Of a stretch of DNA of 64,000 bases, positions 27,565-42,528 are shown piece after piece. Origin of the DNA: a phage; assembly GCA_018027755.1 (NCBI GenBank), contig GCA_018027755.1_4098.1. One strand, 5' to 3'. Below the pieces are notes generated by a model. That model saw nothing but the letters and a program-made list of their open reading frames with translations. It searched no databases and had not been told where the DNA came from. The position numbers were made by a program, and so were the translations under genes. The stretch's first letter is position 1; every line of letters begins with the position of its first letter.

Positions 27565-27579
27565 GGGGAATAGTTCCCC
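27565..27579 (+). promoter_or_regulatory. 5'-proximal leader hairpin
   Basis: GGGGAA-TAG-TTCCCC immediately after predicted start site, before AGAGGA RBS. Confidence 0.5.
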
Positions 27580-27600
27580 ACTATATAAGAGGATTAAAAA

Positions 27601-27840: not shown

Positions 27841-27926
27841 TAGAATTTATTTAAAGTACTATCATTTTTTTGCGATAGTACTTTATAATAGTGTTTTATT
27901 CATACACCAACGATAAGGGCAACAGC

Positions 27927-28193
27927 ATGAATATTAAGTATTTTGCGACGCGTGAACAAGCTCGGATCGCCGCTCGCCAGGACGGGGCAACGTTTAAAGA
28001 TATGGGCGTACAATCGGAACGTGGTAAACGTTGGGCCATTGTAAAGCGTAGTACCGCCAGATCATTACAGTACTGGTTAGCGGCCTTAAAAAGTCCCGAT
28101 AGTGTATCGCGTCGAGTGGTAGAAATAAAGCTCGACCGAAAGGGCAACCGCGTGACCGTGTACCGTACTAAAAAGATTGCAGTACTTGAATAA
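27927..28193 (+). CDS. hypothetical protein (88 aa), paralog of 40612..41016
   Basis: Track ORF trimmed to ATG 27927; KYFATREQARIAAR and DRKGNRVTVY shared with 40612..41016. Confidence 0.6.
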   Translation: MNIKYFATREQARIAARQDGATFKDMGVQSERGKRWAIVKRSTARSLQYWLAALKSPDSVSRRVVEIKLDRKGNRVTVYRTKKIAVLE

Positions 28194-28200
28194 AAAGTAC

Positions 28201-28228
28201 TTGCAAACTATGTTTAATGGCGTATAAT
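28201..28228 (+). promoter_or_regulatory. early promoter (TTGCAA-N16-TATAAT)
   Basis: -35 28201-28206, -10 28223-28228. Confidence 0.6.
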
Positions 28229-28242
28229 GTTTTACATCGAGA

Positions 28243-28259
28243 GCGGGAACACTTCCCGC
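28243..28259 (+). promoter_or_regulatory. 5'-proximal leader hairpin
   Basis: GCGGGAA-CAC-TTCCCGC. Confidence 0.5.
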
Positions 28260-28281
28260 CTATAACCTGGAGTAATAAAAA

Positions 28282-28512
28282 ATGACTAATATGTATATGA
28301 CTGAAGTTAAAACCGTAAAAGATACTACCACGAATAAAACTACTTACTTACAGCGGATCTGCGGTGTATGGCAACGTATCAGCAAATCAAAGTACTTTAA
28401 ATTAACATCATATGCAAATCGTTCGGATTCATTCAGTACTGAAATAAAAGGTAATAAAGTACACCAATACGGCACTTATTATTATTACAGCCTGGACGCG
28501 ATTGCAGTATAA
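28282..28512 (+). CDS. hypothetical protein (76 aa)
   Basis: ORF track; GGAG RBS. Confidence 0.6.
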   Translation: MTNMYMTEVKTVKDTTTNKTTYLQRICGVWQRISKSKYFKLTSYANRSDSFSTEIKGNKVHQYGTYYYYSLDAIAV

Positions 28513-28545
28513 TCATATTTTTTGAAAAATTTACAATTGCCGGTA

Positions 28546-28574
28546 TTGACTTATTTTGTCAGTACTGGCATAAT
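28546..28574 (+). promoter_or_regulatory. promoter (TTGACT-N17-CATAAT) driving an ORF-less unit
   Basis: -35 28546-28551, -10 28569-28574; downstream about 150 nt carries motif-1 and motif-2 and ends in a T-run. Confidence 0.45.
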
Positions 28575-28597
28575 GTATTCATTGGCAGATAAGCCGT

Positions 28598-28622
28598 AGC
28601 CCATAGGGTGCGGGAGTGTATC
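28598..28622 (+). repeat. motif-1 copy
   Basis: AGCCCATAGGGTGCGGGAGTGTATC. Confidence 0.5.
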
Positions 28623-28666
28623 TATAGAAAAATTAGTTTAGTATAGTTACAATTGTGCACCCGGTG

Positions 28667-28680
28667 GGTTAGCTGTTGTC
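28667..28680 (+). repeat. motif-2 copy
   Basis: GCACCCGGTGGGTT. Confidence 0.5.
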
Positions 28681-28764
28681 ATGGGGTATATTATGCCAGT
28701 ACTTGATAATGCTGTCAATACTTTTTTTTAATATTCAGTACTGAAAACTATTTTTAAAAAGTAC

Positions 28765-28792
28765 TTGTAAACTATGTTTAAAGGCGTATAAT
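28765..28792 (+). promoter_or_regulatory. upstream promoter P1 (TTGTAA-N16-TATAAT)
   Basis: First of two tandem promoters before 28943. Confidence 0.5.
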
Positions 28793-28801
28793 GTTTTACA
28801 T

Positions 28802-28881
28802 CAGGACGGGGAACGAAATAAGTAACTTCCCGTTAAGTAGCCCAGGAGTAAGGCACACGAAAAACTCCCCTGATAAAATAG
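28802..28881 (+). ncRNA. candidate about 80-nt leader/small RNA element, copy 1
   Basis: CAGGACGGGGAACGAAATAAG...CTCCCCTGATAAAATAG between promoters P1 and P2; second copy at 39430..39508 before an unrelated gene. Confidence 0.35.
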
Positions 28882-28882
28882 T

Positions 28883-28910
28883 TTGACAATAGAAAGTAAA
28901 AGCGTATAAT
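28883..28910 (+). promoter_or_regulatory. promoter P2 (TTGACA-N16-TATAAT)
   Basis: -35 28883-28888, -10 28905-28910. Confidence 0.6.
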
Positions 28911-28942
28911 ACTTACATCAACTACTGAATGAGGGTTACAAA

Positions 28943-29554
28943 ATGAAAACTATCACTACTACTACTTTTGTTATGGCTTTTTCTGAACTGAACGCAGAAC
29001 AAAAAACGGCGGCTATCGAACTGGTTCGGGATCGTGAGCGTTCATGTGAGGATAATTTCTTTGCTGAGGGCGTTATCGAGTACTATAAAGAAACAGTACT
29101 ACCAGAATACGGCATAGATGAAGCTGAATTGCAATACAGTGGTTTTTGGTCGCAAGGTGACGGTGCATCAATCAGTACTAACCACGTTGACGCTGAGAAG
29201 TTTTTACGCAAGGTTAAGGCGTTAACGAAATATCGTTCAATCCGTCACCTGTTGAACGAGGATGATTTAGAAATGAGTGTAGAACGTTTCCAATCACGCT
29301 ACGCACACGAAAACACGGTAGGCGGTTGCGTTGATACTCGCTACACTGATTTAACTGTAAAACAGGCGGCATTGGCTGAGGATCTGGAAAACTTACTGAC
29401 TGATGCGATCCGTGAATTATCTCGTAAGTTGTACCGTGATTTAGAGAATGCATATGAGGATCAATTCACTACTGAAAACATCGTAGCACTGATTGAGGGT
29501 AACGAATATCAATTCAATGTGATTGATGGCGTAGTAGAATCAATCGAATATTAA
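28943..29554 (+). CDS. hypothetical protein (203 aa), acidic
   Basis: ORF track; GAGGG RBS; only a weak ISTNH motif reminiscent of ArdA, not called. Confidence 0.65.
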   Translation: MKTITTTTFVMAFSELNAEQKTAAIELVRDRERSCEDNFFAEGVIEYYKETVLPEYGIDEAELQYSGFWSQGDGASISTNHVDAEKFLRKVKALTKYRSIRHLLNEDDLEMSVERFQSRYAHENTVGGCVDTRYTDLTVKQAALAEDLENLLTDAIRELSRKLYRDLENAYEDQFTTENIVALIEGNEYQFNVIDGVVESIEY

Positions 29555-29566
29555 TTTAAAAAGTAC

Positions 29567-29594
29567 TTGCATACTAAGTTTAAAAGCGTATAAT
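29567..29594 (+). promoter_or_regulatory. early promoter (TTGCAT-N16-TATAAT)
   Basis: -35 29567-29572, -10 29589-29594. Confidence 0.6.
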
Positions 29595-29607
29595 ACTTTA
29601 TATCGAG

Positions 29608-29626
29608 GCGGGGAGTGGTTCCCCGC
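29608..29626 (+). promoter_or_regulatory. 5'-proximal leader hairpin
   Basis: GCGGGGA-GTGGT-TCCCCGC. Confidence 0.5.
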
Positions 29627-29644
29627 TCAAACGAGGATTTAAAA

Positions 29645-29884
29645 ATGGCTAGTACTAAAACTTATAACGGACACAAAAACAAAACTCATTGGAATGTAAG
29701 CCTTTGGATCAATAACGATGAATCATTATACCGGATTGCTCAAAATTGCATCGCACAAAGTAGAACTAAAGATATTGCTGCGGAATGTATGTACCGCAGA
29801 TTAAAAGCCAACGGTACTACTACAACGCCGGACGGCTTTAAGTATAGCACTACTGCGATCCGTGCTGCAATGGTTGGAATGTAA
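29645..29884 (+). CDS. hypothetical protein (79 aa), paralog of 27601..27840
   Basis: Track ORF trimmed to ATG 29645 after GAGGA RBS. Confidence 0.7.
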   Translation: MASTKTYNGHKNKTHWNVSLWINNDESLYRIAQNCIAQSRTKDIAAECMYRRLKANGTTTTPDGFKYSTTAIRAAMVGM

Positions 29885-29941
29885 TATTCAGTACTGAGAT
29901 AATGGCGGGTAATAGTTCCCGCCTTTACTGAGGGTTATCTA

Positions 29942-30202
29942 ATGAGTAAAGTAATTAGCTATACAGCACTAAGCAAGACATTATCTATTAGCCAGTGCAC
30001 CGATGGTTATTGGCTATTTGATGAAACGCGTGGCATGAATTTAGCCATGCGTGCAAAAACTGCTGAGGCGGCGTATCTTGAAGCATTGGAATACTACCAG
30101 GAACGTTTAAAGGAAGTAGAAGAAGATTATAAAAGCCTCAAAGCGAAAGTAGATCATTTCGTCGGTCAATTCATCGAGGAAGACGACGACAAACAATATT
30201 GA
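29942..30202 (+). CDS. hypothetical protein (86 aa)
   Basis: ORF track; GAGGG RBS; leader hairpin upstream. Confidence 0.6.
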   Translation: MSKVISYTALSKTLSISQCTDGYWLFDETRGMNLAMRAKTAEAAYLEALEYYQERLKEVEEDYKSLKAKVDHFVGQFIEEDDDKQY

Positions 30203-30210
30203 AAAAGTAC

Positions 30211-30238
30211 TTGCAATTAGTTTTCAGTACTGTATAAT
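30211..30238 (+). promoter_or_regulatory. early promoter (TTGCAA-N16-TATAAT, TG-extended)
   Basis: -35 30211-30216, -10 30233-30238. Confidence 0.6.
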
Positions 30239-30250
30239 GGTTTACATCAA

Positions 30251-30270
30251 AGGGAGAAATGGTTCTCCCT
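30251..30270 (+). promoter_or_regulatory. 5'-proximal leader hairpin
   Basis: AGGGAGAA-ATGG-TTCTCCCT. Confidence 0.5.
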
Positions 30271-30288
30271 GGTAATGAGGAAAATAAA

Positions 30289-30510
30289 ATGGCTAATATC
30301 ACTACTCTTTCCCAACTGGAAGCACTGGTGAAATCTATGCGGGAACATGCCGACAAAATCGGCGTACAAGATCCAGCCGTTTGCTTCTGCGACGAATTGA
30401 ATGATGATACCCTGGTAATAGCAGAAGTCCAGGACGTTTCTAACTATTCCTCGCGTTACACTGGCGGCGTAGCAAATAAAGGCGACTTCTGTTTATACCT
30501 TACAAAATAA
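30289..30510 (+). CDS. hypothetical protein (73 aa)
   Basis: Track ORF trimmed to ATG 30289 after GAGGAAAA. Confidence 0.6.
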   Translation: MANITTLSQLEALVKSMREHADKIGVQDPAVCFCDELNDDTLVIAEVQDVSNYSSRYTGGVANKGDFCLYLTK

Positions 30511-30586
30511 CAACGCGGGGAGATAATAACTCCCCGTTACTTTTTCAGTACTGAATCATTTAATAGACGGATCTCGGCACCCGGTG

Positions 30587-30600
30587 GGTTAGTGACTGTT
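30587..30600 (+). repeat. motif-2 copy
   Basis: GCACCCGGTGGGTT. Confidence 0.5.
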
Positions 30601-30678
30601 TCGTCTTGATGTAGTAATTATGCCAGTACTGGATGCACTTGTCAACAACTATTTTTCAAATACTTTTTATTAAAATAC

Positions 30679-30706
30679 TTGCAATTAGTTTTTAAACGCG
30701 TATAAT
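30679..30706 (+). promoter_or_regulatory. early promoter (TTGCAA-N16-TATAAT)
   Basis: -35 30679-30684, -10 30701-30706. Confidence 0.6.
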
Positions 30707-30716
30707 GTTTTGCATA

Positions 30717-30733
30717 GGGGGAGCGGTTCCCCC
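30717..30733 (+). promoter_or_regulatory. 5'-proximal leader hairpin
   Basis: GGGGGA-GCGGT-TCCCCC; identical leader reused at 31039. Confidence 0.5.
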
Positions 30734-30754
30734 TGGTAACTAAGGAATAATAAA

Positions 30755-30991
30755 ATGCTTGAACAAATCAAATCAACGACTTCGAATGTAACGGGAACGG
30801 TAGCACACTTTACTAGTGATGAATCGCGGGGCGTACCCTATTGTGCTGTACATGTAAACACTGATGGCAACTACTGGTTTACTGTTTACGGATCATATTC
30901 CTTTGGACGACCAGGGCATCAAAAAATTCTGGATAAAGTACAGCCAACGGGTAAAAATATCACTGCTGAAATGTTTTATAAAAAATCATAA
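30755..30991 (+). CDS. hypothetical protein (78 aa)
   Basis: ORF track; AAGGAA RBS. Confidence 0.6.
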   Translation: MLEQIKSTTSNVTGTVAHFTSDESRGVPYCAVHVNTDGNYWFTVYGSYSFGRPGHQKILDKVQPTGKNITAEMFYKKS

Positions 30992-30996
30992 AGTAC

Positions 30997-31024
30997 TTGA
31001 TAATAGTTTTTAGTACTGTATAAT
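30997..31024 (+). promoter_or_regulatory. early promoter (TTGATA-N16-TATAAT, TG-extended)
   Basis: -35 30997-31002, -10 31019-31024. Confidence 0.55.
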
Positions 31025-31038
31025 ATTTTACATCGCAA

Positions 31039-31055
31039 GGGGGAGCGGTTCCCCC
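31039..31055 (+). promoter_or_regulatory. 5'-proximal leader hairpin
   Basis: GGGGGA-GCGGT-TCCCCC. Confidence 0.5.
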
Positions 31056-31075
31056 TGGTAACTAAGGATAATCAA

Positions 31076-31375
31076 ATGAAAATTGCAATCATCGCCCTGG
31101 CTTTATCTGTTTCCTCTTTCGCTGTTAATGCGTCATTAGATGTAAGTAGTGAAAAATTCATTCAGTGCACTGTTGCAATGACCGATGAAAGTACTGGCGA
31201 GATTGTATTAAAGGATTTAGAGATCAAGCCGGAAGCATTTAAAAACGGCCCGTTCCATGAAGAAGACGAAAACGGTAGTACAACAATTTATTATGATGCC
31301 AGTACTAAACGCGGTTCGGTCACTGTAATGGATACTGAGAAAGTAACTCATACTGGCGTTATTAATTGCCGTTGA
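31076..31375 (+). CDS. small secreted/periplasmic protein (signal-peptide-like N-terminus)
   Basis: ORF track; MKIAIIALALSVSSFAVNAS.. hydrophobic leader. Confidence 0.6.
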   Translation: MKIAIIALALSVSSFAVNASLDVSSEKFIQCTVAMTDESTGEIVLKDLEIKPEAFKNGPFHEEDENGSTTIYYDASTKRGSVTVMDTEKVTHTGVINCR

Positions 31376-31396
31376 TAGATACTACGGGGTAACATC

Positions 31397-31627
31397 ATGA
31401 CTAAGCGAATTGTTTTACTTAACGAAAGCAGTACTACACAACTACTTAACGCCGTGCATTATGATATTGAAACGAGCGTTAATCTTATCAGTACTGTCGT
31501 ACTGTTGGACACTGGAAAGGTCGCCAATGATAAAGCGATTGCAGGTATACTAACGGATCTTGAGCCTGGTAGCAGTGCACCAATAACGTTAAATGGTAAA
31601 GTGTTTAATATTTTACTCACTGATTAA
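31397..31627 (+). CDS. hypothetical protein (76 aa)
   Basis: ORF track; terminator immediately downstream. Confidence 0.6.
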   Translation: MTKRIVLLNESSTTQLLNAVHYDIETSVNLISTVVLLDTGKVANDKAIAGILTDLEPGSSAPITLNGKVFNILLTD

Positions 31628-31633
31628 GTACAT

Positions 31634-31663
31634 AGCCCACCTGGTGGGCTTTTTTTGTTTTTG
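31634..31663 (+). terminator. intrinsic terminator
   Basis: AGCCCACC-TGGTGGGCT hairpin followed by TTTTTTTGTTTTT. Confidence 0.7.
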
Positions 31664-31861
31664 TAGTATCGTAGTACTGAGATACTTTGAAAATAGTTTT
31701 AAGAAAGTAGTTGACATTACCGCAGAAAAGCGTAGAATGTATTACATCAAGACGGGGAGCACTAAGTAGACCGCCAGTAAGTCGAACGAAAAACTGGACA
31801 CGTCGAGAAAACTTTGATACACTAACCAACGTAAACTAAACTTTAATTGAGGATTTATAAA

Positions 31862-32344
31862 ATGGCTAATGTAAAATCATTCATCAAAGCACTGGTAGCA
31901 AATGAAACTAACGTCGCGGCTGAGATCCTGGCTGAACTGGATAACGATACCATGAAAGCGGTACGCAATAATTTTAACATCGCGTACAGTACTGCGAAAG
32001 AACTACAAGCAAATAAAGCGGCAGAAATTGAAGCGGCAAAGGCGGCCCGTGAAGCAGAACTACAAGCAACAATTGAAAGTATTCAGGCGGCAGTAGTTGG
32101 ATTGGATCTGGAAGTAGTTACAGAGATGGCACAAAAAGCCCTGGCGAAAAAGTACGGTGAAGATAAGCCAGAAGTAAAAGCTAAAAAATGGATTCAAGAA
32201 CGTGTAGCGGTAGTACTTGATAACGGGGAAGAATATCTGATTCCGGTGCGTGGTAACTGCATTGCGGTAGTACTGGATGCGATTAACTCCAGTGGTATGA
32301 CTCGCGAGGAATGGATCGAAGCTCATCGCAAAGTTGAAGCATAA
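31862..32344 (+). CDS. hypothetical protein (160 aa), Ala/Glu-rich coiled-coil-like N-terminus
   Basis: Track ORF trimmed to ATG 31862 after GAGGA RBS. Confidence 0.6.
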   Translation: MANVKSFIKALVANETNVAAEILAELDNDTMKAVRNNFNIAYSTAKELQANKAAEIEAAKAAREAELQATIESIQAAVVGLDLEVVTEMAQKALAKKYGEDKPEVKAKKWIQERVAVVLDNGEEYLIPVRGNCIAVVLDAINSSGMTREEWIEAHRKVEA

Positions 32345-32365
32345 CAATTAAAGTACTGAATCACT

Positions 32366-32392
32366 AGCCCACCTTAAACAGTGGGCTTTTTT
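32366..32392 (+). terminator. intrinsic terminator
   Basis: AGCCCAC-CTTAAACA-GTGGGCT hairpin followed by TTTTTTG. Confidence 0.65.
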
Positions 32393-32619
32393 GTGTCTAT
32401 CGTTTACCAGGCCACCAGCACCGCCTAGAAACGATTCTAACGCATTAAACTGATTATCTGATGCATTGCCCTAGCTGGTGGCGTTAAAGTCGTTAGAATG
32501 CGATTGAGAGCGTTTAAAGTATTTTGCAAAAAGTAATAAAAAGTACTTGCACGATTAAGAGATTAGCGTATAATTAATTACATCAAGGTAAGACACCTTA
32601 ACTAACTGAGGATATAAAG

Positions 32620-32772
32620 ATGAATACTTATGACCTGGATTGTTTTACTTTACAAGTAATGTCAGTATGCAGTAAGAAAGATTGGTCATCAAAGGAATTT
32701 AAAGCAGTTATCGCGTGTGCAAAACACGGCAAGACTATCAATGAAACGGCATCAATCATTGATAAACTTTAA
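32620..32772 (+). CDS. hypothetical small protein (50 aa)
   Basis: Below track cutoff; promoter and GAGGA RBS upstream; read from sequence. Confidence 0.45.
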   Translation: MNTYDLDCFTLQVMSVCSKKDWSSKEFKAVIACAKHGKTINETASIIDKL

Positions 32773-32842
32773 AAAATAGTTTGACAATAGTTTTAAGTAC
32801 TGGCATAATACATACATCAACTACTGAATAGGAATCAAAACA

Positions 32843-33070
32843 ATGGCTATCGTAATCGCTTATGTAACTGGTACTACTGGCACTTCTTCTACTGTTGCTG
32901 TAATTACCAACAAGAAAGGTGCGGAATTACATTCTGCAATGGATACCTGGGCGGTAAATGAGTTCGGTCAGTGGGCAAGTGTAGCATATGTTGAAACCTA
33001 TCAAGTGCCAACCATTAGCTTAACGGATCTCGGTGTAGATCGTATCCTTTGCCTGGATGAATTAAATTAA
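32843..33070 (+). CDS. hypothetical protein (75 aa)
   Basis: ORF track; TAGGAA RBS. Confidence 0.6.
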   Translation: MAIVIAYVTGTTGTSSTVAVITNKKGAELHSAMDTWAVNEFGQWASVAYVETYQVPTISLTDLGVDRILCLDELN

Positions 33071-33157
33071 AAAAGTACTTGCAAAGTAAGTTGGATAAAG
33101 TATAATACATTACATCAAGGGGAGAAAATGGTTCTCCCCACTAAGAGGAAACTAAAA

Positions 33158-33301
33158 ATGAAAACTTGTCAATGTGGTAAAAAATCTATTACTGGTTTGA
33201 AACGGGGCGTTGCTCTTTGTCAGTATCACTATAACGCTCAGGTATGGGGTAAAGAGTGGGCCGACCAGGTGGAAGCAGTAAAGAAAGCAAAAAGTAAGTA
33301 A
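33158..33301 (+). CDS. small Cys-containing protein (47 aa), possible zinc ribbon
   Basis: Below track cutoff; promoter + leader hairpin + AGAGGAAA RBS; MKTCQCGKK...CQYHY. Confidence 0.45.
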   Translation: MKTCQCGKKSITGLKRGVALCQYHYNAQVWGKEWADQVEAVKKAKSK

Positions 33302-33382
33302 AATTATTATCACAGTACTATTGACATAGATTGATAGTACTGGCATAATAGATTTTATCAAGACAACTAAGAGGAAACAATA

Positions 33383-33595
33383 ATGGCTATCATCACAAAA
33401 ATCAAAGTAAACAAATCACTGGTTAAGCTGGAAGAAGTGAAAGAAGGTTATAAAGTATCGTGGTGCGGCATGTATCGGATTTTTACAGATGTTGACGATG
33501 CAATCAATTACTACACTGACACGGTAAAAAACTTTGTTCGTGCTGATGTGGTTATGGCAGTGGCAACACACAAAGCATCGAAAGAAAGTAAGTAA
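33383..33595 (+). CDS. hypothetical protein (70 aa), paralog of 36530..36709
   Basis: ORF track; MAIITKIK..; shared upstream promoter sequence with 33677 and 36530 genes. Confidence 0.6.
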   Translation: MAIITKIKVNKSLVKLEEVKEGYKVSWCGMYRIFTDVDDAINYYTDTVKNFVRADVVMAVATHKASKESK

Positions 33596-33676
33596 AAATA
33601 TTATCACAGTACTATTGACATAGTTTGATAGTACTGGCATAATAGATTTTATCAAGACAACTAAGAGGAAATTAAA

Positions 33677-34021
33677 ATGGCTAATATCAACACTATCGCA
33701 AAACAAAATATCAACCTGTCTTCTGTTGAAGTTGTACATATTGCCGCTCGGCGTTGGTTCCAGGCTTCATATGGTAACACTTATTTCTCTTTAAGTGTAG
33801 ACGTAGAAATTGATGGTAATTTTATTGAAGTAGTAAACGTGCCGTTCCAATATGGATACGGGGATCACTTTGACACTGTAGCAATGGAAGAATTTAGCAA
33901 GGTTATTAATATGGAAGATAAAGAGTTTTTACGCGGTTCTTATCTTTCCCGTTTTTGCCGTGACAATAATATCACTGTTTACAGTTCGGTAACTGATGTT
34001 AAACGCAAAAAAGATCTTTAA
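33677..34021 (+). CDS. hypothetical protein (114 aa), paralog of 40202..40525
   Basis: ORF track; shared GNTY, YGYG and C-terminal DVKRKKD. Confidence 0.65.
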   Translation: MANINTIAKQNINLSSVEVVHIAARRWFQASYGNTYFSLSVDVEIDGNFIEVVNVPFQYGYGDHFDTVAMEEFSKVINMEDKEFLRGSYLSRFCRDNNITVYSSVTDVKRKKDL

Positions 34022-34101
34022 TTAGCTTTACTTTATGCAGATACTTTGATATAGTGTCTGCATAGGGGAAAGAAATTAAATTAACTTAAGAGGATCGTAT
34101 A

Positions 34102-34371
34102 ATGAAAAATATCAGTACTTTAATCGATGCAGGTACTCATGTTCGTCGGTCTATGGTTGCAACCAGTACTACAAAACAAGTAGCGAGCGGTTATCTTGTA
34201 TTTGTGCACGATGGTAAACTCCTGGAACGTTCAATCAATTTTGATGTTAAAAACAATTGCCGTTTTATTATCTTTCGCCGTGAACAATATAAGATCGACA
34301 TTCCAGCGAAGCCCATTAGCGGTGCGTACAACGTGCAATCATTGTTTGAACGTCAACCATACACCTATTAA
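34102..34371 (+). CDS. hypothetical protein (89 aa)
   Basis: ORF track; AGAGGA RBS. Confidence 0.6.
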   Translation: MKNISTLIDAGTHVRRSMVATSTTKQVASGYLVFVHDGKLLERSINFDVKNNCRFIIFRREQYKIDIPAKPISGAYNVQSLFERQPYTY

Positions 34372-34422
34372 TCAAAACATCGTTAGCGGTCGATTTAGGC
34401 CGCTTATATTGGGGATTATACC

Positions 34423-34695
34423 ATGAACGTTAATCAAGTACTGAATGAGATCGAAAGCATCATTAAACCGATGAAGCGTACTGATGCTATGTTAACACCG
34501 GAAGAATGCCGCCTTTATGAGCGTTACAGCGTCGAACAAGTCCAGGCAATGGCTATGGCTACCCCAGCCGTTAAACAGCCTGAGAACGCGTTACAGGACG
34601 TTACAGGGGATTATATCATCAATCCAGTACTAGGGAAGATGGCTGCAATCACCGAAGATCAACAAGACTACTTAAGCCAGTACTTAAAAGGTTAA
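34423..34695 (+). CDS. hypothetical protein (90 aa)
   Basis: ORF track. Confidence 0.55.
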   Translation: MNVNQVLNEIESIIKPMKRTDAMLTPEECRLYERYSVEQVQAMAMATPAVKQPENALQDVTGDYIINPVLGKMAAITEDQQDYLSQYLKG

Positions 34696-34700
34696 TTAAT

Positions 34701-34910
34701 ATGCTTACTGTACAGGATAAGATCGACATCTTAAAGGTTAATATGTATGTGATTGATGCAGTACCTGGTAAAGTATTTGCATACGATGACAGTACTGTAA
34801 GCGATTTCTACTATAGCCAGGACGTGGGGGATCTTTCTGTACAGTCGGTTATTGAAAACGTAGTTAATGCAGCGTATGAGCATTTACTTTCAAATAGTAC
34901 TTGCAATTAG
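34701..34910 (+). CDS. hypothetical protein (69 aa)
   Basis: ORF track; starts 5 nt after upstream stop. Confidence 0.55.
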   Translation: MLTVQDKIDILKVNMYVIDAVPGKVFAYDDSTVSDFYYSQDVGDLSVQSVIENVVNAAYEHLLSNSTCN

Positions 34911-34979
34911 TTTTTAAACGCGTATAATGTTTTACATGAAGGGGAGAAATGATTCTCCCCACTAATTAAGGAATATGAA

Positions 34980-35126
34980 ATGAAAGCATCAAAAAAGAGT
35001 AATACTAAGAAAGCACGTTCAACCTTAGATGGGGTATTCCCTTTACGTTTCGTTGATGAAGTAGTTTCCTACCCGCCGGGCCTTACTCCTGAGATGGTAG
35101 AAAGTTTGCGTAAATCTAAAAAATAG
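34980..35126 (+). CDS. hypothetical small protein (48 aa)
   Basis: Below track cutoff; promoter + leader hairpin upstream. Confidence 0.4.
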   Translation: MKASKKSNTKKARSTLDGVFPLRFVDEVVSYPPGLTPEMVESLRKSKK

Positions 35127-35207
35127 TACTTGCAATTAGTTTTCAGTACTGTATAATAGTTTACATGAAGGGGAGAAATGATTCTCCCCAATAACAGGAG
35201 AAACAAA

Positions 35208-35360
35208 ATGAAACAATACAACGCTCGGTTTGATGTTACTATCGGTAACGGCAAAGGTCAATTCTCTTTCAGTACTCGCCGCAGTTATACAGAAAACTTC
35301 CTGCGTAATTGTGCACTGACCGCCGCACAAATTAAACATTACTTCCAGGCTAAAAAATGA
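35208..35360 (+). CDS. hypothetical small protein (50 aa)
   Basis: Track ORF trimmed to ATG 35208 after CAGGAG RBS. Confidence 0.5.
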   Translation: MKQYNARFDVTIGNGKGQFSFSTRRSYTENFLRNCALTAAQIKHYFQAKK

Positions 35361-35446
35361 AATCATTAGCTTATTACAGTTCAGCGGTGATCGGTGCATT
35401 GATCGCGGCATTGTTAGTAACCTATCTATTCTTTATGGTGATTTAA
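35357..35446 (+). CDS. hydrophobic micro-protein (29 aa)
   Basis: ATGA overlap with upstream gene; MKSLAYYSSAVIGALIAALLVTYLFFMVI single TM-like helix. Confidence 0.35.
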   Translation: MKSLAYYSSAVIGALIAALLVTYLFFMVI

Positions 35447-35581
35447 ATGAATCCTAACGGTTTAATTTACAGTACTCCTAAAACGAAAGCAGATAAAGCG
35501 AAAGCACGTAAAGCGAAAGTAAAGGAGTACATTAAGCAAGGCATGACGCGAAAGGCGGCAGTACTGAAAGCTAAAAAATAA
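35447..35581 (+). CDS. basic micro-protein (44 aa)
   Basis: TAAATGA coupling; Lys/Ala-rich. Confidence 0.35.
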   Translation: MNPNGLIYSTPKTKADKAKARKAKVKEYIKQGMTRKAAVLKAKK

Positions 35582-35584
35582 ATG

Positions 35585-35625
35585 AAAAAAGTGGTTGACT
35601 TCGGTCAGCCATTTTGCTATTATAT
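35585..35625 (+). promoter_or_regulatory. composite element: A-run + hairpin overlapping TTGACT-N17-TATTAT promoter
   Basis: Same element as 1806; followed by motif-1 copy and a second promoter. Confidence 0.5.
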
Positions 35626-35647
35626 ATTCATTGAGAGATAGCTCACT

Positions 35648-35672
35648 AGCCCACCGGGTGCATAAGTGTATC
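35648..35672 (+). repeat. motif-1 copy
   Basis: AGCCCACCGGGTGCATAAGTGTATC. Confidence 0.5.
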
Positions 35673-35795
35673 TATTATATAAGTATTGAGTACTGAAAAC
35701 TATTTTTAAAAAGTACTTGCAAACTATCTCAATTGGCGTATAATGTTTTACATCGCAAGGGGAAACGGTTTCCCCTGGTAATAAGGAAACAAATC

Positions 35796-36137
35796 ATGAC
35801 TATCTCAATTGCTCAATCTAACTTTGAAAATGAAATCATCGCCCAGGCACTGCGTTTAAATGATGGTCGGGCCGAAATTAATTACGGTTTCAATTCAGGC
35901 GGTTGTGAAAACTATCAGTACTTTGTAACGGCTGATGGCGGTGTCCTGGGTATCAATACAGTTATTGTAAACATCCAAAAAATTAATTTCAATGATCCAG
36001 ACGATAGCCAGTTTTACATTGTAGGCGTAGACGTGAACTATGAGGATGACTCACTAACTGATGATCACACTGGCGAGCGGTTAGAAAGTGCATACGGTGA
36101 AGATGATTATCAGTCCGGTCCAGAAGATTTCGAATAA
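35796..36137 (+). CDS. hypothetical protein (113 aa), acidic C-terminus
   Basis: Track ORF trimmed to ATG 35796 after AAGGAAAC. Confidence 0.6.
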   Translation: MTISIAQSNFENEIIAQALRLNDGRAEINYGFNSGGCENYQYFVTADGGVLGINTVIVNIQKINFNDPDDSQFYIVGVDVNYEDDSLTDDHTGERLESAYGEDDYQSGPEDFE

Positions 36138-36233
36138 TATAAAAAAATAGTTTGACAATAGATTATAGTACTGTATAATAGTTTACATCAAGGGGAGAAA
36201 AACTTCTCCCCACTAACAGAGAGAGAAAACAAA

Positions 36234-36446
36234 ATGGCTAATATCCGGTCGAAATTAAAAAATGCAAAACAAGTTTTATTTTCAGATCATGAATACTTTA
36301 ATAAAGATATTACAGGAGTTACAAGTATCAAGGAAGTAAAAGAAAAAACCGGTGTTTTGTGTGATGTGCGATTAGTTGGGACATTTGGGAATAACGTGCT
36401 ATATCGCTGCGGTGATTACAATTTTACACTGACTATCATTAACTAA
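36234..36446 (+). CDS. hypothetical protein (70 aa)
   Basis: ORF track; promoter + leader hairpin upstream. Confidence 0.6.
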   Translation: MANIRSKLKNAKQVLFSDHEYFNKDITGVTSIKEVKEKTGVLCDVRLVGTFGNNVLYRCGDYNFTLTIIN

Positions 36447-36529
36447 AAATATTATCACAGTACTATTGACATAGTTTGATAGTACTGACATAATAACTTT
36501 TATCAACTACACTACTAAGGAATTAAAAA

Positions 36530-36709
36530 ATGGCTATCATCGCAAAAACTGAAATCGTTGGTCTGGATTCTATCATCATGACGTTTGAAGATCAAAAAGG
36601 TATGTATGTAGTTTCCTATGGTGATTATGTTCGGGAGTATGAAACGGTAGACGAAGCCTTTGAAAGTTATATTCGCCAGGTGAATAAAGCATACGACGAC
36701 TACCGCTAA
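36530..36709 (+). CDS. hypothetical protein (59 aa), paralog of 33383..33595
   Basis: Below track cutoff; MAIIAKTEIVGL..; same upstream promoter sequence. Confidence 0.5.
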   Translation: MAIIAKTEIVGLDSIIMTFEDQKGMYVVSYGDYVREYETVDEAFESYIRQVNKAYDDYR

Positions 36710-36810
36710 AATATATTACCAGTACTATTAAATCTATTGACAACGTTTGATAGTACTGTATAATAAGTTTTATAAACAGTAATTAACTTAACCTAAGAGA
36801 GAGAAACAAA

Positions 36811-36954
36811 ATGATCGCACTGGATTCATTCATCGACGCAGTACTGGCAAAAACTGGCGAGGATCTGACCGCAGAACAATACGCGATGATCGAGCAATGT
36901 CAGCAAAACGGTAAATCGGTGAAAGATACTGTTAAGATTATCCGCAAGATGTAA
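36811..36954 (+). CDS. hypothetical small protein (47 aa)
   Basis: Below track cutoff; AGAGAGAGAAAC leader then ATG. Confidence 0.4.
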   Translation: MIALDSFIDAVLAKTGEDLTAEQYAMIEQCQQNGKSVKDTVKIIRKM

Positions 36955-36960
36955 TATTAT

Positions 36961-36986
36961 AGCCCACTGGTTAACGCTGGTGGGCT
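36961..36986 (+). terminator. probable intrinsic terminator (weak T-tract)
   Basis: AGCCCAC-TGGTTAACGC-TGGTGGGCT hairpin; contains a GCTGGTGG octamer. Confidence 0.45.
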
Positions 36987-37059
36987 TTAATCATTTACCC
37001 TATACAATGCCAGTACTAAACCGTTTATCTCGTTAGAATGCGTTACAGGACGTTTAACA

Positions 37060-37257
37060 ATGATTAGCATGAAATCAGTACAAAAACAAATAGAAACATT
37101 ATCAAAAATTAAACGTAAACAGTACTCCTTAGAATATACAATCAATGGTAACTATCATCTAATGAAAGAAAATAATTTTATAGTCATTGATGAATCATTG
37201 CAAATCATTAGTATAGTACTGAAAGCATTAATCAATGACAGAAAAAAATTAAAATAA
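37060..37257 (+). CDS. hypothetical protein (65 aa)
   Basis: ORF track; AT-rich, weak RBS. Confidence 0.4.
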   Translation: MISMKSVQKQIETLSKIKRKQYSLEYTINGNYHLMKENNFIVIDESLQIISIVLKALINDRKKLK

Positions 37258-37317
37258 TCTATTGACAATATCATCCAGTACTGGCATAATACTTACATCA
37301 AGACGAGAACGTCACTA

Positions 37318-37342
37318 ACCCATAGGGTGCACAAATGTAACT
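37318..37342 (+). repeat. motif-1 copy (diverged)
   Basis: AACCCATAGGGTGCACAAATGTAAC. Confidence 0.4.
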
Positions 37343-37586
37343 ATATAATATCGTTCAATAAATGATCAAAAAAGTACTGGATCAATTTAACATAAGGAGT
37401 ATAATTCTGATCAATTCTTGATCAAAGGCAATATACGCAGTTGAATTTATATAGACAATACAAAGGCGTTACTATCCGTGGTAATGCTGGTGGATATGTA
37501 GTATCATATGGTTTGAATAAGATTAGCACTAGTAGTATTATTGTAGCATTACAGTACTATAGTATTTTTATAATGAGGTTAAAATA

Positions 37587-37844
37587 ATGGCAGTAGGATA
37601 CGCGAAAGACGGGGCCGAACAAGACGAGATTCACGCAGTGATTCAGGCCGCCGTTAACCACGCTAGAAAGCAAATTAACGCACAAAGAGAATCACTGGTA
37701 CATTGCCTCGACTGCGGCGATAAAATCCCTGAGAATCGACGCCAGGCCGTTATAGGGTGCATGTATTGTATTACTTGCCAGGAGGATCATGATAGTACTT
37801 TTAAAAGAGATCCGCGTAATTGTTGGCATAGATCTATGAGATAA
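37587..37844 (+). CDS. TraR/DksA-family C4 zinc-finger protein
   Basis: INAQRESLVHCLDCGDKIPENRR....CMYCITCQ matches TraR-type CxxC-N17-CxxC pattern. Confidence 0.65.
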   Translation: MAVGYAKDGAEQDEIHAVIQAAVNHARKQINAQRESLVHCLDCGDKIPENRRQAVIGCMYCITCQEDHDSTFKRDPRNCWHRSMR

Positions 37845-37907
37845 AAAGTATTGACAGTACTGAAAGATAGTGTATAATGTTTTATATCTTAACTGAGGAT
37901 AGTAATC

Positions 37908-38264
37908 ATGGGAATACAACATATCACGCGTACTACTGACAATGGAGAGATCACTGGTTATCAGGTACAGGGCAAAGTAGCACAATTGCAGTACTGGTTT
38001 GTTAAACGTGGAATCATTGCACCGGATCTTGATTATGACCGTGTAGCGTTTATTGATTCTCTTTATGTTGATCCTGATAGTCGGGGCAATGGTGAAGGTA
38101 ACGAATTAATGAATGCCTTTATTGATGCCGCCGGTGATTCAGATTGTATCATCTTAGAATGCGATACGGGAGAAGATAACGCCTTTAATCTTAAAGAATG
38201 GTACGAAGGTTTCGGATTCGAGGTATTGATAGATAGTGAATATCCTATCATGATTTTATCATAG
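37908..38264 (+). CDS. GNAT-family N-acetyltransferase-like protein
   Basis: IDSLYVDPDSRGNGEGNELM resembles GNAT acetyl-CoA motif (V-x-P-x-x-R-G-x-G); promoter upstream. Confidence 0.45.
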   Translation: MGIQHITRTTDNGEITGYQVQGKVAQLQYWFVKRGIIAPDLDYDRVAFIDSLYVDPDSRGNGEGNELMNAFIDAAGDSDCIILECDTGEDNAFNLKEWYEGFGFEVLIDSEYPIMILS

Positions 38265-38336
38265 TACTTGCATTTAGTTTTCAGTACTGTTATAGTACTT
38301 ACATCAAGGGGAAACGTCTTCCCCTACTAAGAGGAA

Positions 38337-38531
38337 ATGAAAATGGAAAACTTATCAAGTATTTTAGTACAAGATGATTTTGGCAATCCTGGTAGTGCTA
38401 TCATTGTTCGGGGTAATAAAGCAACGTTTGTTATTGCTGGTGGGCCAGTACAGCGTAGCATTAAAAATAATGCTGTTACCATTAATAATGTACGCTATCG
38501 CTTAGATAAAGAATTGATTCATAAACTTTAA
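38337..38531 (+). CDS. hypothetical protein (64 aa)
   Basis: ORF track; leader hairpin + AGAGGAAA RBS. Confidence 0.6.
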   Translation: MKMENLSSILVQDDFGNPGSAIIVRGNKATFVIAGGPVQRSIKNNAVTINNVRYRLDKELIHKL

Positions 38532-38615
38532 AAAGTATTTGACAATAGATTATAGTGCTGTATAATAAGTTACATGAAGGGGTGAAATGATTCTCCCCAC
38601 TAAGAGGAAAGAAAA

Positions 38616-38828
38616 ATGCAAGGTCAACTAATCGTTCGTAAATGGTCTGATACTAACGAAAAACCGTGGGATGTACAATACATCGGACCGGATGGGGTAT
38701 CACGTTATCAGCCTGGCGTAACGCATAGTACTGAGCAATTCGCAAACGCTCACCGCGAACGCCTGTTAGAATCCATGAAACAGGGATTCTGTGAAAAATT
38801 CATTCAAGATCATTGGCTGAAAGATTAA
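38616..38828 (+). CDS. hypothetical protein (70 aa)
   Basis: ORF track; leader hairpin + AGAGGAAA RBS. Confidence 0.6.
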   Translation: MQGQLIVRKWSDTNEKPWDVQYIGPDGVSRYQPGVTHSTEQFANAHRERLLESMKQGFCEKFIQDHWLKD

Positions 38829-38845
38829 TATAAGGAGTACAGCTT

Positions 38846-38938
38846 ATGCAAATGAATCCGATGATTATTGTTTTAGCTGTACTTATGATCATTCATGCAA
38901 TAGTAGAAGTATTAACGCAATCAGGAGTAATAAAATGA
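38846..38938 (+). CDS. hydrophobic micro-protein (30 aa)
   Basis: AAGGAG RBS; MQMNPMIIVLAVLMIIHAIVEVL.. Confidence 0.35.
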   Translation: MQMNPMIIVLAVLMIIHAIVEVLTQSGVIK

Positions 38939-39108
38939 TTCAAGTAGAATTATCAGTACTGAAAGATCTGTTTTATCGGTTAGGTACTACTGGCGAGTAT
39001 CCTAAAAGTGATACCGCAAAACTTTTTGTATCACTCGACTTATGGCAACGCGAACAATTAGTAATGTCCTGGCGTAAAGGTAAAGCAGATAGCGAGGTGA
39101 AAGCATGA
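38935..39108 (+). CDS. hypothetical small protein (57 aa)
   Basis: ATGA overlap with upstream micro-ORF. Confidence 0.4.
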   Translation: MIQVELSVLKDLFYRLGTTGEYPKSDTAKLFVSLDLWQREQLVMSWRKGKADSEVKA

Positions 39109-39254
39109 AAGAATTCTTATTCGAAGTAGTGTTTCAAGGTGTCGGTAGTAACCAACTGATTCGCTCAAGTGGTTACAATGTTAACCAGGCATGGAATAAC
39201 ATTAAACAAATGTACCCGAACGCTATCACCTATCGCAACCCGAAACAAGTTTAA
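39105..39254 (+). CDS. hypothetical small protein (49 aa)
   Basis: ATGA overlap; followed by composite terminator/promoter element. Confidence 0.4.
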   Translation: MKEFLFEVVFQGVGSNQLIRSSGYNVNQAWNNIKQMYPNAITYRNPKQV

Positions 39255-39261
39255 AAATAAT

Positions 39262-39303
39262 TGAAAAAGGGATTGACACCGGTCAGTCCCTTTGCTATTA
39301 TAT
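39262..39303 (+). promoter_or_regulatory. composite element: A-run + hairpin overlapping TTGACA-N17-TATTAT promoter
   Basis: AGGGATTGAC-ACCG-GTCAGTCCCT; -35 39273-39278, -10 39296-39301. Confidence 0.5.
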
Positions 39304-39320
39304 ACGCATAGAAACAAATC

Positions 39321-39345
39321 AGCCCACAGGGTGCATAAATGTATC
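39321..39345 (+). repeat. motif-1 copy
   Basis: AGCCCACAGGGTGCATAAATGTATC, followed by a GCTGGTGG octamer. Confidence 0.5.
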
Positions 39346-39429
39346 TATTGTTTGCTGGTGGCTAGTACTGAAAACTATTTTTAAAAAAGTACTTGCATTG
39401 TACTTAGAATCAAGTATAATGTTTTACAT

Positions 39430-39508
39430 CAGGACGGGGAACGAAACAAGTAACCCCGTTAAGTAGTCCAGGAGTAAGACATACGAAAAACTCCCCTGAT
39501 AAAATAGT
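39430..39508 (+). ncRNA. candidate about 80-nt leader/small RNA element, copy 2
   Basis: Near-identical to 28802..28881, again between tandem promoters. Confidence 0.35.
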
Positions 39509-39569
39509 TTGACAATAGAAATTAAACGAGTATAATACTTACATCAACCACTGATAAGGAAACATAAAA

Positions 39570-39845
39570 ATGCGGATTCTACTGACAGCTAACGAAATCG
39601 AACAAGTACTGACTACTAACCTGGAAGACTGGAAACGTGAAGCAGATATCCAGGCGGTTCAATGGCTTAACGATAAGTTAACGCCGGATGACTTAAGCAA
39701 GATTGTAGATCCTCAATTCTACGAAGATATTCACGACACCGCGTTAAGCGTCGAGGATGTACTTGATAAGCACTACATTGATACTGATTTACATGTTTAC
39801 GGTCGTAAAAACTTTATCACTATTCACGACATTTACAATACTTAA
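39570..39845 (+). CDS. hypothetical protein (91 aa)
   Basis: ORF track; AAGGAAAC RBS. Confidence 0.6.
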   Translation: MRILLTANEIEQVLTTNLEDWKREADIQAVQWLNDKLTPDDLSKIVDPQFYEDIHDTALSVEDVLDKHYIDTDLHVYGRKNFITIHDIYNT

Positions 39846-39932
39846 GTATTGACAAAGTATCTTAGTACTGTATAATAGTTTACATCAAGGCGGGGAAATG
39901 GTTCCCCTCCTAACTAAAAGAGAGAAATTAAA

Positions 39933-40115
39933 ATGGCTAAGTGCACTATCTGTAAGAAAGAAATCGTATTAGTTCCAAGTGCCCGTGAACGTGCCGCTCG
40001 GTTCGGTGGCAAAGCGTCAGACTATACAAAAATGTTTACTGCCCATGCAGATTGCCAGGTAGCAAAACGTTCACAAGAAAGCGTAGAATTAATGCGTAAA
40101 CTTTCCAAAAAATAA
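39933..40115 (+). CDS. small Cys-containing protein (60 aa)
   Basis: ORF track; MAKCTICKK...HADC; promoter + leader hairpin. Confidence 0.55.
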   Translation: MAKCTICKKEIVLVPSARERAARFGGKASDYTKMFTAHADCQVAKRSQESVELMRKLSKK

Positions 40116-40201
40116 GTATTGACAAAGTATCTTAGTACTGTATAATAGTTTACATCAAGTGAGGGGAAACGGTTCCCCTCCTAACAGAGAGAGAAATAAA
40201 A

Positions 40202-40525
40202 ATGGCTATGATCCTTACCCAGAAAGTGGAATTGAAAATTGTAACCTCCTTTGACATTAAAGTTAATCGCTGGACTGATCGGAACGGCAATACTTACCAC
40301 TCTTGCTACGTGTCTGCATTGATTGGTGATCGTTGGGAAGACCTGGGACACGAAACTTTTACATACGGTTACGGTACGCAAGGCGAATACACGGGCTTGG
40401 AGATCATTAAAGAAACCGTTATAGGTTTCAACCCGAAAGAAAAAGTTATTCACCGCATCGAAAAAGAGATTAACAAAGAAATAACAGTTCGCTACTACGA
40501 TGTAAAACGTAAGAAAGACATGTAA
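40202..40525 (+). CDS. hypothetical protein (107 aa), paralog of 33677..34021
   Basis: ORF track; C-terminal DVKRKKDM. Confidence 0.65.
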   Translation: MAMILTQKVELKIVTSFDIKVNRWTDRNGNTYHSCYVSALIGDRWEDLGHETFTYGYGTQGEYTGLEIIKETVIGFNPKEKVIHRIEKEINKEITVRYYDVKRKKDM

Positions 40526-40611
40526 TAGAATCCATTTAAAGTACTATTTGACATTACACAGATAGTACTTTATAATAGACTCTAACTTGTAGTACTAACT
40601 CAACTAATAGG

Positions 40612-42521: not shown

Positions 42522-42528
42522 AAAAGAT

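Follow-up and report, generated by a model that had tools for sequence, protein, structure and literature searches.

What does a sequence of about 80 nucleotides (nt) do that a phage keeps, between promoters, in front of genes that have nothing in common? The question is raised by a 64,000-nt stretch of DNA (contig GCA_018027755.1_4098.1 of the GenBank assembly GCA_018027755.1; hereafter, the window) from an Asteriusvirus-like jumbo coliphage with 90–94% identity to phages SP27, PBECO4 and 121Q over long stretches. An element of ~79–80 nt is repeated in the window at 28802–28881 (copy A) and 39430–39508 (copy B), with four substitutions and one 2-nt insertion or deletion (indel) between the two in a pairwise alignment. 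The first-pass annotation, made from the sequence without database searches, had described both copies, each placed between a TTG-TATAAT promoter and a second, TTGACA-TATAAT promoter and followed by unrelated genes. This description holds: an upstream promoter (promoter P1) and a perfect downstream promoter (promoter P2) are found at both loci, and the proteins encoded behind the two copies (203 and 91 amino acids) show no mutual similarity and belong to different PHROGs of unknown function. Sequence comparison indicates that the element is a portable, promoter-proximal, pseudoknotted RNA domain under purifying selection that is common to unrelated virulent phages of Enterobacterales with early genes transcribed by the host polymerase, and that it represents, in jumbo phages, a motif family to which the A1–A2 leader of T7 also belongs and which is missing from Rfam 15.

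Copies A and B align in a local blastn comparison over 85 nt with 92.9% identity (E=2.5e-28), and the 17-mer GTTAAGTAGNCCAGGAG occurs in these two copies only across the whole window, with up to three mismatches allowed. The view of the repeat as ~80 nt in two copies had to be amended: both copies are there, but similarity between the loci extends over ~190 nt (about 28736–28928 versus 39365–39555) and there is a third, diverged copy of the core (copy C), first seen with a degenerate pattern and then with a covariance model. The outer parts of the ~190-nt repeat are generic promoter sequence common to at least 15 cassettes in the window, and the spacers of promoter P1 differ between A and B. 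The constrained unit is the helix-closed domain (Table 1), which starts at the predicted first transcribed base and ends with the last base of the closing helix; the +1 of copy A was inferred from the 7-nt spacing and from the analogy of AUC(G/A)AG with the start at T7 A1. The covariance model of the core has exactly three matches in the window, all on the plus strand (28831–28872 in A, 39457–39498 in B and 31760–31801 in C), with 51–58 bits compared with 8 bits for the next best. Copy C lies within the 5' leader of a gene with its ATG at 31862, and downstream of it there is only a weak promoter-like site (31814–31842).

The core consists of UAAGUAG-N-C followed by a 4–5-bp hairpin (P3) with the loop (N)UAAG-N'-C-NN-ACGAAAA(N). 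Folding of the two copies and a search for covariation between them had been proposed as a check of the element. Both copies are predicted to adopt a Y-shaped fold with the two ends in one helix (z=-2.2 for A and -3.2 for B), but A and B alone vary too little for covariation to be judged. Linked changes and double insertions among close copies (G/C insertions in phage muut and haplotype-linked substitutions) are uninformative alone as well; it is the family-wide comparison that resolves the C/U–G/A linkage as a pseudoknot pair. Across 23 distinct sequences, 91% of the cells of P3 are paired and four of its five pairs show changes on both sides, whereas the same structure slid by one to three columns pairs only 24–47%. 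The versions of the stem are GGAG/CUCC, GCCUG/CAGGC, GCUUG/CAAGC and CCAG/CUGG, plus GGUG/CACC in the fourth copy of phage EJP2.

The 3' strand of the closing helix begins 0–1 nt after P3. In T7-like phages, this helix takes the forms GUCAA/UUGAC, GUCGGU/ACCGAC, GUCAUC/GAUGAC and GAUUAG/CUAAUC, with double-sided changes in five pairs, a value that none of 500 shuffles reaches; in jumbo phages it is AUCAGG/CCUGAU (copies A and B) or GCGGC/GUCGC, and the covariation comes from the T7-like phages, not from within the jumbo-phage copies. An upstream hairpin, built from about ten different stems, ends 0–2 nt before UAAGUAG in 28 of 30 unique contexts, compared with 44% of shuffles. Within the pseudoknot, the central pair N:N' is A-U in 15 sequences, U-A in four and C-G in three, with a single mismatch (22/23 paired); the flanking G-C and C-G pairs are invariant, which gives the 3-bp stem G-N-C:G-N'-C and leaves the A-rich ACGAAAA as a third loop. 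All three central pairs are represented in the window (C-G in copy A, U-A in B and A-U in C). Given that G-U pairs are tolerated on the plus strand only, in P3 and in the closing helix, the folded molecule appears to be the transcript rather than the DNA of both strands. We consider the family and the fold to be well supported, with the hairpin, the closing helix, the upstream hairpin and the pseudoknot all backed by compensatory changes.

The leader between the A1 and A2 promoters of T7, which belongs to the untranslated 'initiator' RNA made from A1, scores 65 bits with the core covariance model. The leaders of T7 and T3 share with the window copies UAAGUAG-N-C, the hairpin with the UAAG-N-C-NN-ACGAAAA loop, the closing helix, the position at about +54 from a strong sigma70 promoter and just before the next promoter, and the start of the transcript (AUCGAG in T7, AUCAGG in the window). 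They differ in copy number, with one copy per genome in T7-like phages and three in the window, and in the closing helix, which in T7-like phages takes its 5' strand from the loop of the upstream hairpin and its 3' strand from the -35 hexamer of A2. Copies A and B have, by contrast, a closing helix (AUCAGG/CCUGAU) that starts at the first base of the transcript, GGAG/CUCC as P3 and an upstream hairpin with a loop of 13–17 nt. Across T7-like phages, a 37-nt core is nearly invariant whereas divergence affects the promoter spacers and the leader outside the core, and the core is better conserved than the flanking promoters. The T7-like leaders carry an rrn-type boxA further downstream.

A search for additional copies, another suggestion of the first-pass annotation, was productive far beyond copy C. 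Searching with the element, blastn retrieved 45 phage records. The Asteriusvirus matches have two copies each, or four where the terminal repeat is written twice, and phage EJP2 (L011) has more, with two extra copies at 6770–6860 and 10487–10575; one of the extra copies combines the P3 stem GGUG/CACC with an AUG in place of the loop ACG, resulting in a 12-codon open reading frame (ORF) behind AGGUG, and the other has a different P2 hairpin. The copies in phage CMSTMSU were excluded, the record being marked unverified and containing homopolymer-type indels. Seven phages of ~145 kb from the phi92 group (Justusliebigvirus and records labelled Vequintavirinae) carry the element with at least 90% identity; here, the element is retained with different promoters on both sides and a different gene behind it. 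Weak matches (E=0.06) from a permissive blastn search with one variant led to the T7-like Kayfunaviruses, in which the sequence is part of the early region at the left end, is flanked on its two sides by tandem TTGACA promoters and combines the conserved linker and hairpin loop with a different stem. The degenerate pattern detected 32 loci in IMG/VR, nearly all of them T7-like left ends, in addition to copy C, and blastn with the Kayfunavirus leader retrieved 416 phage records, among which distant T7-like phages (T3, phiYeO3-12, phiA1122 and phages of Serratia, Erwinia and Klebsiella) align to that leader only over a 42-nt core. The motif also occurs in Klebsiella phage KPV811 and relatives, in a contig of 366 kb with affinity to Salmonella phage Munch and Klebsiella phage fENko-Kae01, and in the IMG/VR contig 2030936005_000003 (L036, 4040–4190), where it is in a single-promoter leader and is followed, 21 nt on, by the rrn-type boxA CGCTCTTTAACAA.

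In all carriers, which besides Asteriusvirus include other Rak2-like jumbo phages, phi92-like phages and hundreds of T7-like genomes, the motif is located about +19 to +57 from a sigma70-type promoter, as judged by consensus matches, and on the gene strand. Altogether, at least six genes with nothing in common have the element in front of them, in three phage lineages. Between phage outra and its relative alia there is an indel of exactly 115 bp that spans from one promoter's -10 box to that of the promoter behind it; promoter and element are thus gained or lost together by recombination within promoter boxes. With this unit gain or loss and the covariation across families, the initial proposal of a structured non-coding leader that is kept independently of the gene stands. 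Additional copies of the A/B type in IMG/VR and metagenomes were limited to Asteriusvirus sequences, apart from chance matches (L005, L008 and L009), and no second copy was detected in the A2–A3 interval of T7 at E<=1. Among 185,579 genomes of bacterial species, the core pattern is absent except in a phage contig binned in a metagenome-assembled genome, with two chance matches (L051 and L053); host mimicry was rejected on account of this absence.

Comparison with known RNAs did not identify the element. No Rfam 15 covariance model reached its gathering score in the window, which also lacks tRNA and tmRNA genes; at E<=10, the sole match of the element itself was to Lnt (E=9.3), and the loci of T7, Pkp-1 and L036 gave nothing at E<=1, so that known families, including pistol, hammerhead, preQ1, mini-ykkC, 6S and tRNA-like RNAs, were discarded for want of a match. 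No intrinsic terminator follows any copy, and there is no terminator-like site at the element. The best match of the core model in the whole genome of phage HK022 had 9.9 bits (E=0.32), and membership of the HK022 put family was rejected because neither sequence nor model similarity was found. No boxA in the window exceeds chance expectation, and a boxA/Nus link in the jumbo phage was rejected for this reason. Protein coding was rejected, too. The 31-amino-acid ORF at 28791–28886 starts inside a -10 box, and in 11 variants the changes are concentrated in the P2 loop and include indels of 2 and 4 nt, which break any frame and so mark the element as non-coding. In public records, 'hypothetical protein' coding sequences are placed over the element, for example, A71_225 of phage A7_1 (L004, 2703–3101, on the opposite strand) and several in Asteriusvirus; in view of indels that break the frame and helices that covary, these annotations are probably spurious. 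The motif is undescribed in the accessible papers, which give the T7 sequence neither a name nor a function; older work on the left ends of T7 and T3 is in subscription journals outside our reach and might contain an earlier remark.

Table 1 Predicted features of the three copies of the element and their promoters, in window coordinates
Feature	Coordinates	Strand	Basis or remark
Promoter P1 of copy A, TTGTAA-16-TATAAT	28765–28792	+	Promoter scan; predicted +1 = A28800
Copy A, RNA domain	28800–28874	+	Fold; covariance model 56.1 bits, E=9.5e-14; family covariation
Copy A, closing helix (helix P1)	28800–28805 with 28869–28874	+	Predicted fold
Copy A, hairpin P2	28806–28812 with 28827–28833	+	Predicted fold
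Copy A, linker UAAGUAG	28834–28840	+	
Copy A, pseudoknot GCC with GGC	28840–28842 with 28852–28854	+	
Copy A, hairpin P3, GGAG with CUCC	28845–28848 with 28865–28868	+	A-rich loop 28855–28864
Promoter P2 of copy A, TTGACA-16-TATAAT	28883–28910	+	12/12; predicted to drive gene 28943–29554
Promoter of copy C, TTGACA-16-TAGAAT	31711–31738	+	Predicted +1 = A31746
Copy C, domain	31746–31805	+	Covariance model 51.2 bits, E=2.2e-12; fold; PHROG of downstream gene
Copy C, closing helix, weak, GACG with CGUC	31751–31754 with 31801–31804	+	
Copy C, UAAGUAG	31763–31769	+	
Copy C, pseudoknot GAC with GUC	31769–31771 with 31781–31783	+	
Copy C, hairpin P3, CCAG with CUGG	31774–31777 with 31794–31797	+	
Promoter P1 of copy B, TTGCAT-16-TATAAT	39393–39420	+	Sequence reading, families D2/D3; predicted +1 = A39428
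Copy B, RNA domain	39428–39500	+	Fold z=-3.2; covariance model 58.4 bits, E=2.3e-14; family covariation
Copy B, closing helix (helix P1)	39428–39433 with 39495–39500	+	Predicted fold
Copy B, hairpin P2	39434–39439 with 39454–39459	+	
Copy B, UAAGUAG	39460–39466	+	
Copy B, pseudoknot GUC with GAC	39466–39468 with 39478–39480	+	
Copy B, hairpin P3	39471–39474 with 39491–39494	+	
Promoter P2 of copy B, TTGACA-16-TATAAT	39509–39536	+	12/12; predicted to drive gene 39570–39845

Given that the host is the only thing that these phages share, the partner of the domain is most likely a host component, and the location of the domain, at the start of nascent early transcripts with no terminator behind it, makes action in cis the most likely mode. 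The explanation that we consider best, and to which we give about an even chance, is that the element is a cis-acting conserved RNA domain at the 5' end of early transcripts made from host sigma70 promoters, where it would bind a host factor. The domain, encoded at the very 5' end of the transcripts of the host sigma70 RNA polymerase, comprises the closing helix, usually an upstream hairpin, the invariant single-stranded UAAGUAG, the 3-bp pseudoknot and the 4–5-bp hairpin, the A-rich loop of which could cross the pseudoknot stem. It spreads between genomes and loci together with a promoter, via recombination inside promoter boxes. The nascent or 5'-terminal RNA would then bind, in cis, a host component common to all these infections, the most plausible partners being the RNA decay machinery and the transcription elongation complex, on which the RNA would counter pausing or termination in the way of HK022 put or nut/boxA sites. 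The domain would set the fate of the transcripts that start at the upstream promoter, with the downstream promoter yielding an unmodified transcript of the same genes. Transcripts from the second promoter lack the element, which speaks against mere on/off control of the neighbouring gene; the arrangement fits a role tied to the polymerase or the transcript that started upstream.

Several observations weigh against this explanation. All T7-like and Asteriusvirus copies are followed by a bypass promoter and each small gene has a promoter of its own, so that the need for antitermination is not obvious. The window has no boxA, and HK022 put resembles the element neither in sequence nor by the covariance model. 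The predicted fold of copy C is weak (z=-0.5). Most T7-like phages use the -35 hexamer of A2 as the 3' strand of the closing helix and have an A-tract at the UP-element site, so that part of the conservation in this group could be at the DNA level. Between the window and 121Q, the element is 91.8% identical, no better than the surrounding ~90%. Finally, T7 deletion mutants without part of the A1–A3 region are viable in the laboratory.

The initial proposal had been 'a small RNA or riboregulatory leader', of which the leader is nearer to the evidence; a discrete RNA of 80–100 nt is not supported because no terminator follows any copy, and, moreover, copy C lies in an ordinary 5' untranslated region and in one relative a boxA leader comes next. 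There is, nevertheless, some chance, albeit a modest one, that the element is a stand-alone small-RNA gene with a 3' end produced by processing after the closing helix, such that a stable, pseudoknotted 75-nt RNA would work in trans, either by sequestering a host protein (decoy or sponge) or through base-pairing of its conserved loops. This would be in keeping with an ORF-less unit of promoter plus element that is gained or lost as a whole, with a conserved unit that stops exactly at the closing helix and gives way to an AU-rich single strand, and with a new promoter behind the element in nearly all contexts. In T7, discrete RNAs arise from the untranslated leader through cleavage by RNase III. 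Such a gene would have its own promoter but in no copy an intrinsic terminator, copy C and the L036 locus are ordinary mRNA leaders, T7-like phages leave no spacer between the 3' strand of the closing helix and the next promoter, and no complementary target was found, no search aimed at one having been made. An explanation at the level of DNA, under which the conserved sequence would be an UP element and -35 sequence of the downstream promoter in tandem arrays and a stretch of homology for cassette recombination, with no function as RNA, is improbable. T7-like phages do have their A-tract around position -45 relative to A2 and use the -35 hexamer as the 3' strand of the closing helix, the spacer of promoter P2 in the window resembles that of T7 A2 (on a reading of the sequence), and the outra/alia indel ends inside -10 boxes, as in shuffling of the PeSL type (PMC2839356). 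Two observations, however, contradict this reading. Four helices are kept intact by compensatory changes, with G-U pairs on one strand only, and the spacing between the core and the next -35 box is not fixed, being 2, 13, 16–21 or ~40 nt, or the core is followed by no promoter at all. In L023, moreover, the closing helix GAUUAG/CUAAUC is not a promoter hexamer.

The compact architecture itself brings to mind a ligand-sensing, riboswitch-like aptamer or a small ribozyme: several small aptamers are built as an H-type pseudoknot with an A-rich third loop within a closing helix. The element has, in addition, unpaired nucleotides that are invariant and peripheral hairpins that vary in size. We regard this as unlikely, because there is no Rfam match (at E<=10 for the element and E<=1 for the T7-like leaders) and no expression platform, that is, no terminator, no ribosome-binding site sequestered in most copies, and a bypass promoter behind the element, and because the downstream genes are unrelated. 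Even more unlikely is a decayed cassette, in which the remains of a lost early gene (5' hairpin, Shine-Dalgarno sequence and initial codons) or a leader mini-ORF would persist only because the copies are young. The P2 hairpin of copies A and B does resemble the generic cassette hairpin, and ACATCAGGACGGGGAACG also opens an ordinary cassette of phage inny; 8 nt after AGGAG, ACG AAA AAC... reads in frame to a TGA in the next -35 box, and the EJP2 copy with the 12-codon ORF has AUG at this place. The putative start is, however, ACG in all copies but that one, the T7-like copies lack a Shine-Dalgarno sequence at the site, the core is nearly invariant across Autographiviridae, jumbo and phi92-like phages while its flanks diverge, and the helices covary, which is unexpected for a dead gene start.

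A functional parallel to a cis-acting host-directed domain is offered by the put sites of HK022. The putL and putR sites, two per genome and located just downstream of early promoters, are ~70 nt long, with two stem-loops and a non-canonical tertiary structure; they act in cis as nascent RNA on the host RNA polymerase, requiring no phage protein, and bind the zinc-binding domain of the beta' subunit, suppressing pausing and termination in cis (PMC9378689). The element is similar in size and in its promoter-proximal site, and, by analogy only, may be similar in acting in cis as nascent RNA. In contrast, HK022 is a temperate lambdoid phage, its put sites are upstream of terminators, and there is the lack of sequence and model similarity described above. 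The nut sites of lambda and the boxB-boxA leaders of rrn operons likewise have promoter-proximal leader hairpins, theirs being recognised as RNA, and the location of the L036 motif 21 nt upstream of the rrn-type boxA CGCUCUUUAACAA resembles the boxB-boxA order; the loop and stem are, however, unrelated to boxB, the window has no boxA, and no N-like protein is implied. A bolder version of the cis-acting explanation, which we put forward tentatively and regard as rather unlikely as a whole, is that of a portable device made of RNA only: the first RNA made on infection would fold on the emerging transcript and bind a universal host factor, be it the elongation complex of the RNA polymerase or another, so as to redirect early transcription or neutralise a host function. 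Passed horizontally between T7-like phages, phi92-like phages and Rak2-like jumbo phages, such a device would parallel HK022 put as a second case, with an unrelated structure, and would have been overlooked in the best-studied phage promoter region.

The setting of the element in the window is a dense array of early promoters, annotated in related records as part of the direct terminal repeat. Between ~25.7 and 46 kb, dozens of small ORFs follow each other on the plus strand, each behind a stereotyped cassette that comprises an A-rich upstream tract, TTGaca-N16/17-TATAAT, GTTTTAC-ATC, a GC-rich hairpin at the 5' end of the RNA, a Shine-Dalgarno sequence and ATG. The repeat families D1–D3, D8 and D9 have 14–16 copies each in this region, and a scan of the window found 109 promoter-like sites compared with 67 expected. 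The transcripts of the generic cassettes (27000–46000) begin with AUCGAGAG(G/C)GGG, the same initial transcribed sequence as that of T7 A1 (AUCGAGAGGGACACGG; positions 498–515 of L049, a 39,937-bp IMG/VR contig whose A1-to-A2 sequence we take to be that of T7), which suggests a promoter-plus-start design common to different phage families.

The cassettes are reminiscent of the PeSL cassettes of T4-type phages, which combine a strong sigma70 promoter with a GC stem-loop before ORFans in hyperplastic regions and mediate insertion and deletion through inter-cassette recombination (PMC2839356, PMC4122927). At least 15 cassettes of the window have this organization, with a promoter and a stem-loop before ORFans in a hyperplastic region, and the 115-bp indel between outra and alia is bounded by cassettes, from -10 box to -10 box. 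The phage lineages differ, though, and the stem-loops in the window follow the promoter at the 5' end of the RNA and lack a U-tract; the element, furthermore, is an ORF-less, sequence-specific, pseudoknotted domain and not a generic hairpin. A PeSL-like role as a terminator or attenuator is not supported, the hairpins being behind the promoter, without a U-tract, and the element being devoid of a terminator-like site.

The window has other features besides the cassettes. Just upstream of copy A, in a gap without ORFs (28513–28942), there are convergent TTGAC-N17-TG-CATAAT promoters (28546–28574 on the plus strand and 28718–28690 on the minus strand) with ~115 nt of non-coding sequence between them, which could give a sense/antisense RNA pair. 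A terminator-like hairpin with a 12-bp stem, AAAGGGATTGACNCCGGTCAGTCCCTTT, is present in five copies (1793–1860, 35573–35640, 39251–39318, 42518–42585 and 45274–45341), with a TTGAC -35 box inside the stem and TGCTATTAT after it, that is, a terminator and a promoter combined. Four of these hairpins, as well as the related promoter at 28546, are followed by ~50 conserved nt (AGCCCAYAGGGTGC...GTATCTAT) and then by another promoter. Immediately upstream of the early cassettes (26173–26316), about 18 tandem 8-bp units (GGATGGCT / AGACGGCT / AAACGGCT; family D12) resemble an iteron-like or protein-binding array. The minus strand between 6400 and 21000 encodes about 12 paralogous genes with a period of ~1.2 kb, conserved 5' ends and a promoter-like leader each; they share an intergenic hairpin (GCCAGTAC...GTACTGGC; families D4, D5, D7 and D10) and are annotated in related records as RCC1-like 'regulator of chromosome condensation'. 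Two pairs of direct repeats, of families D14/D19, are 300 nt long with 93% identity (9162–9461 and 13607–13906) and 246 nt long with 74% identity (21382–21627 and 24334–24579).

In practical terms, the motif could serve as an annotation signature for early regions transcribed by the host polymerase, and it accounts for ORF-less gaps that are filled with spurious 'hypothetical proteins' in several genome records. The T7 A1 promoter with the first 100 transcribed bases is among the most used templates in transcription biochemistry, and a covarying pseudoknot inside this region, better conserved than the promoters themselves, would be a new, testable phage-host RNA element, with elongation control, RNA stability and decoy action as candidate roles. 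The presence of one domain in 350-kb jumbo phages, phi92-like phages and T7-like phages suggests that non-coding modules, and not only genes, are exchanged on promoter cassettes among unrelated virulent phages of the same hosts.

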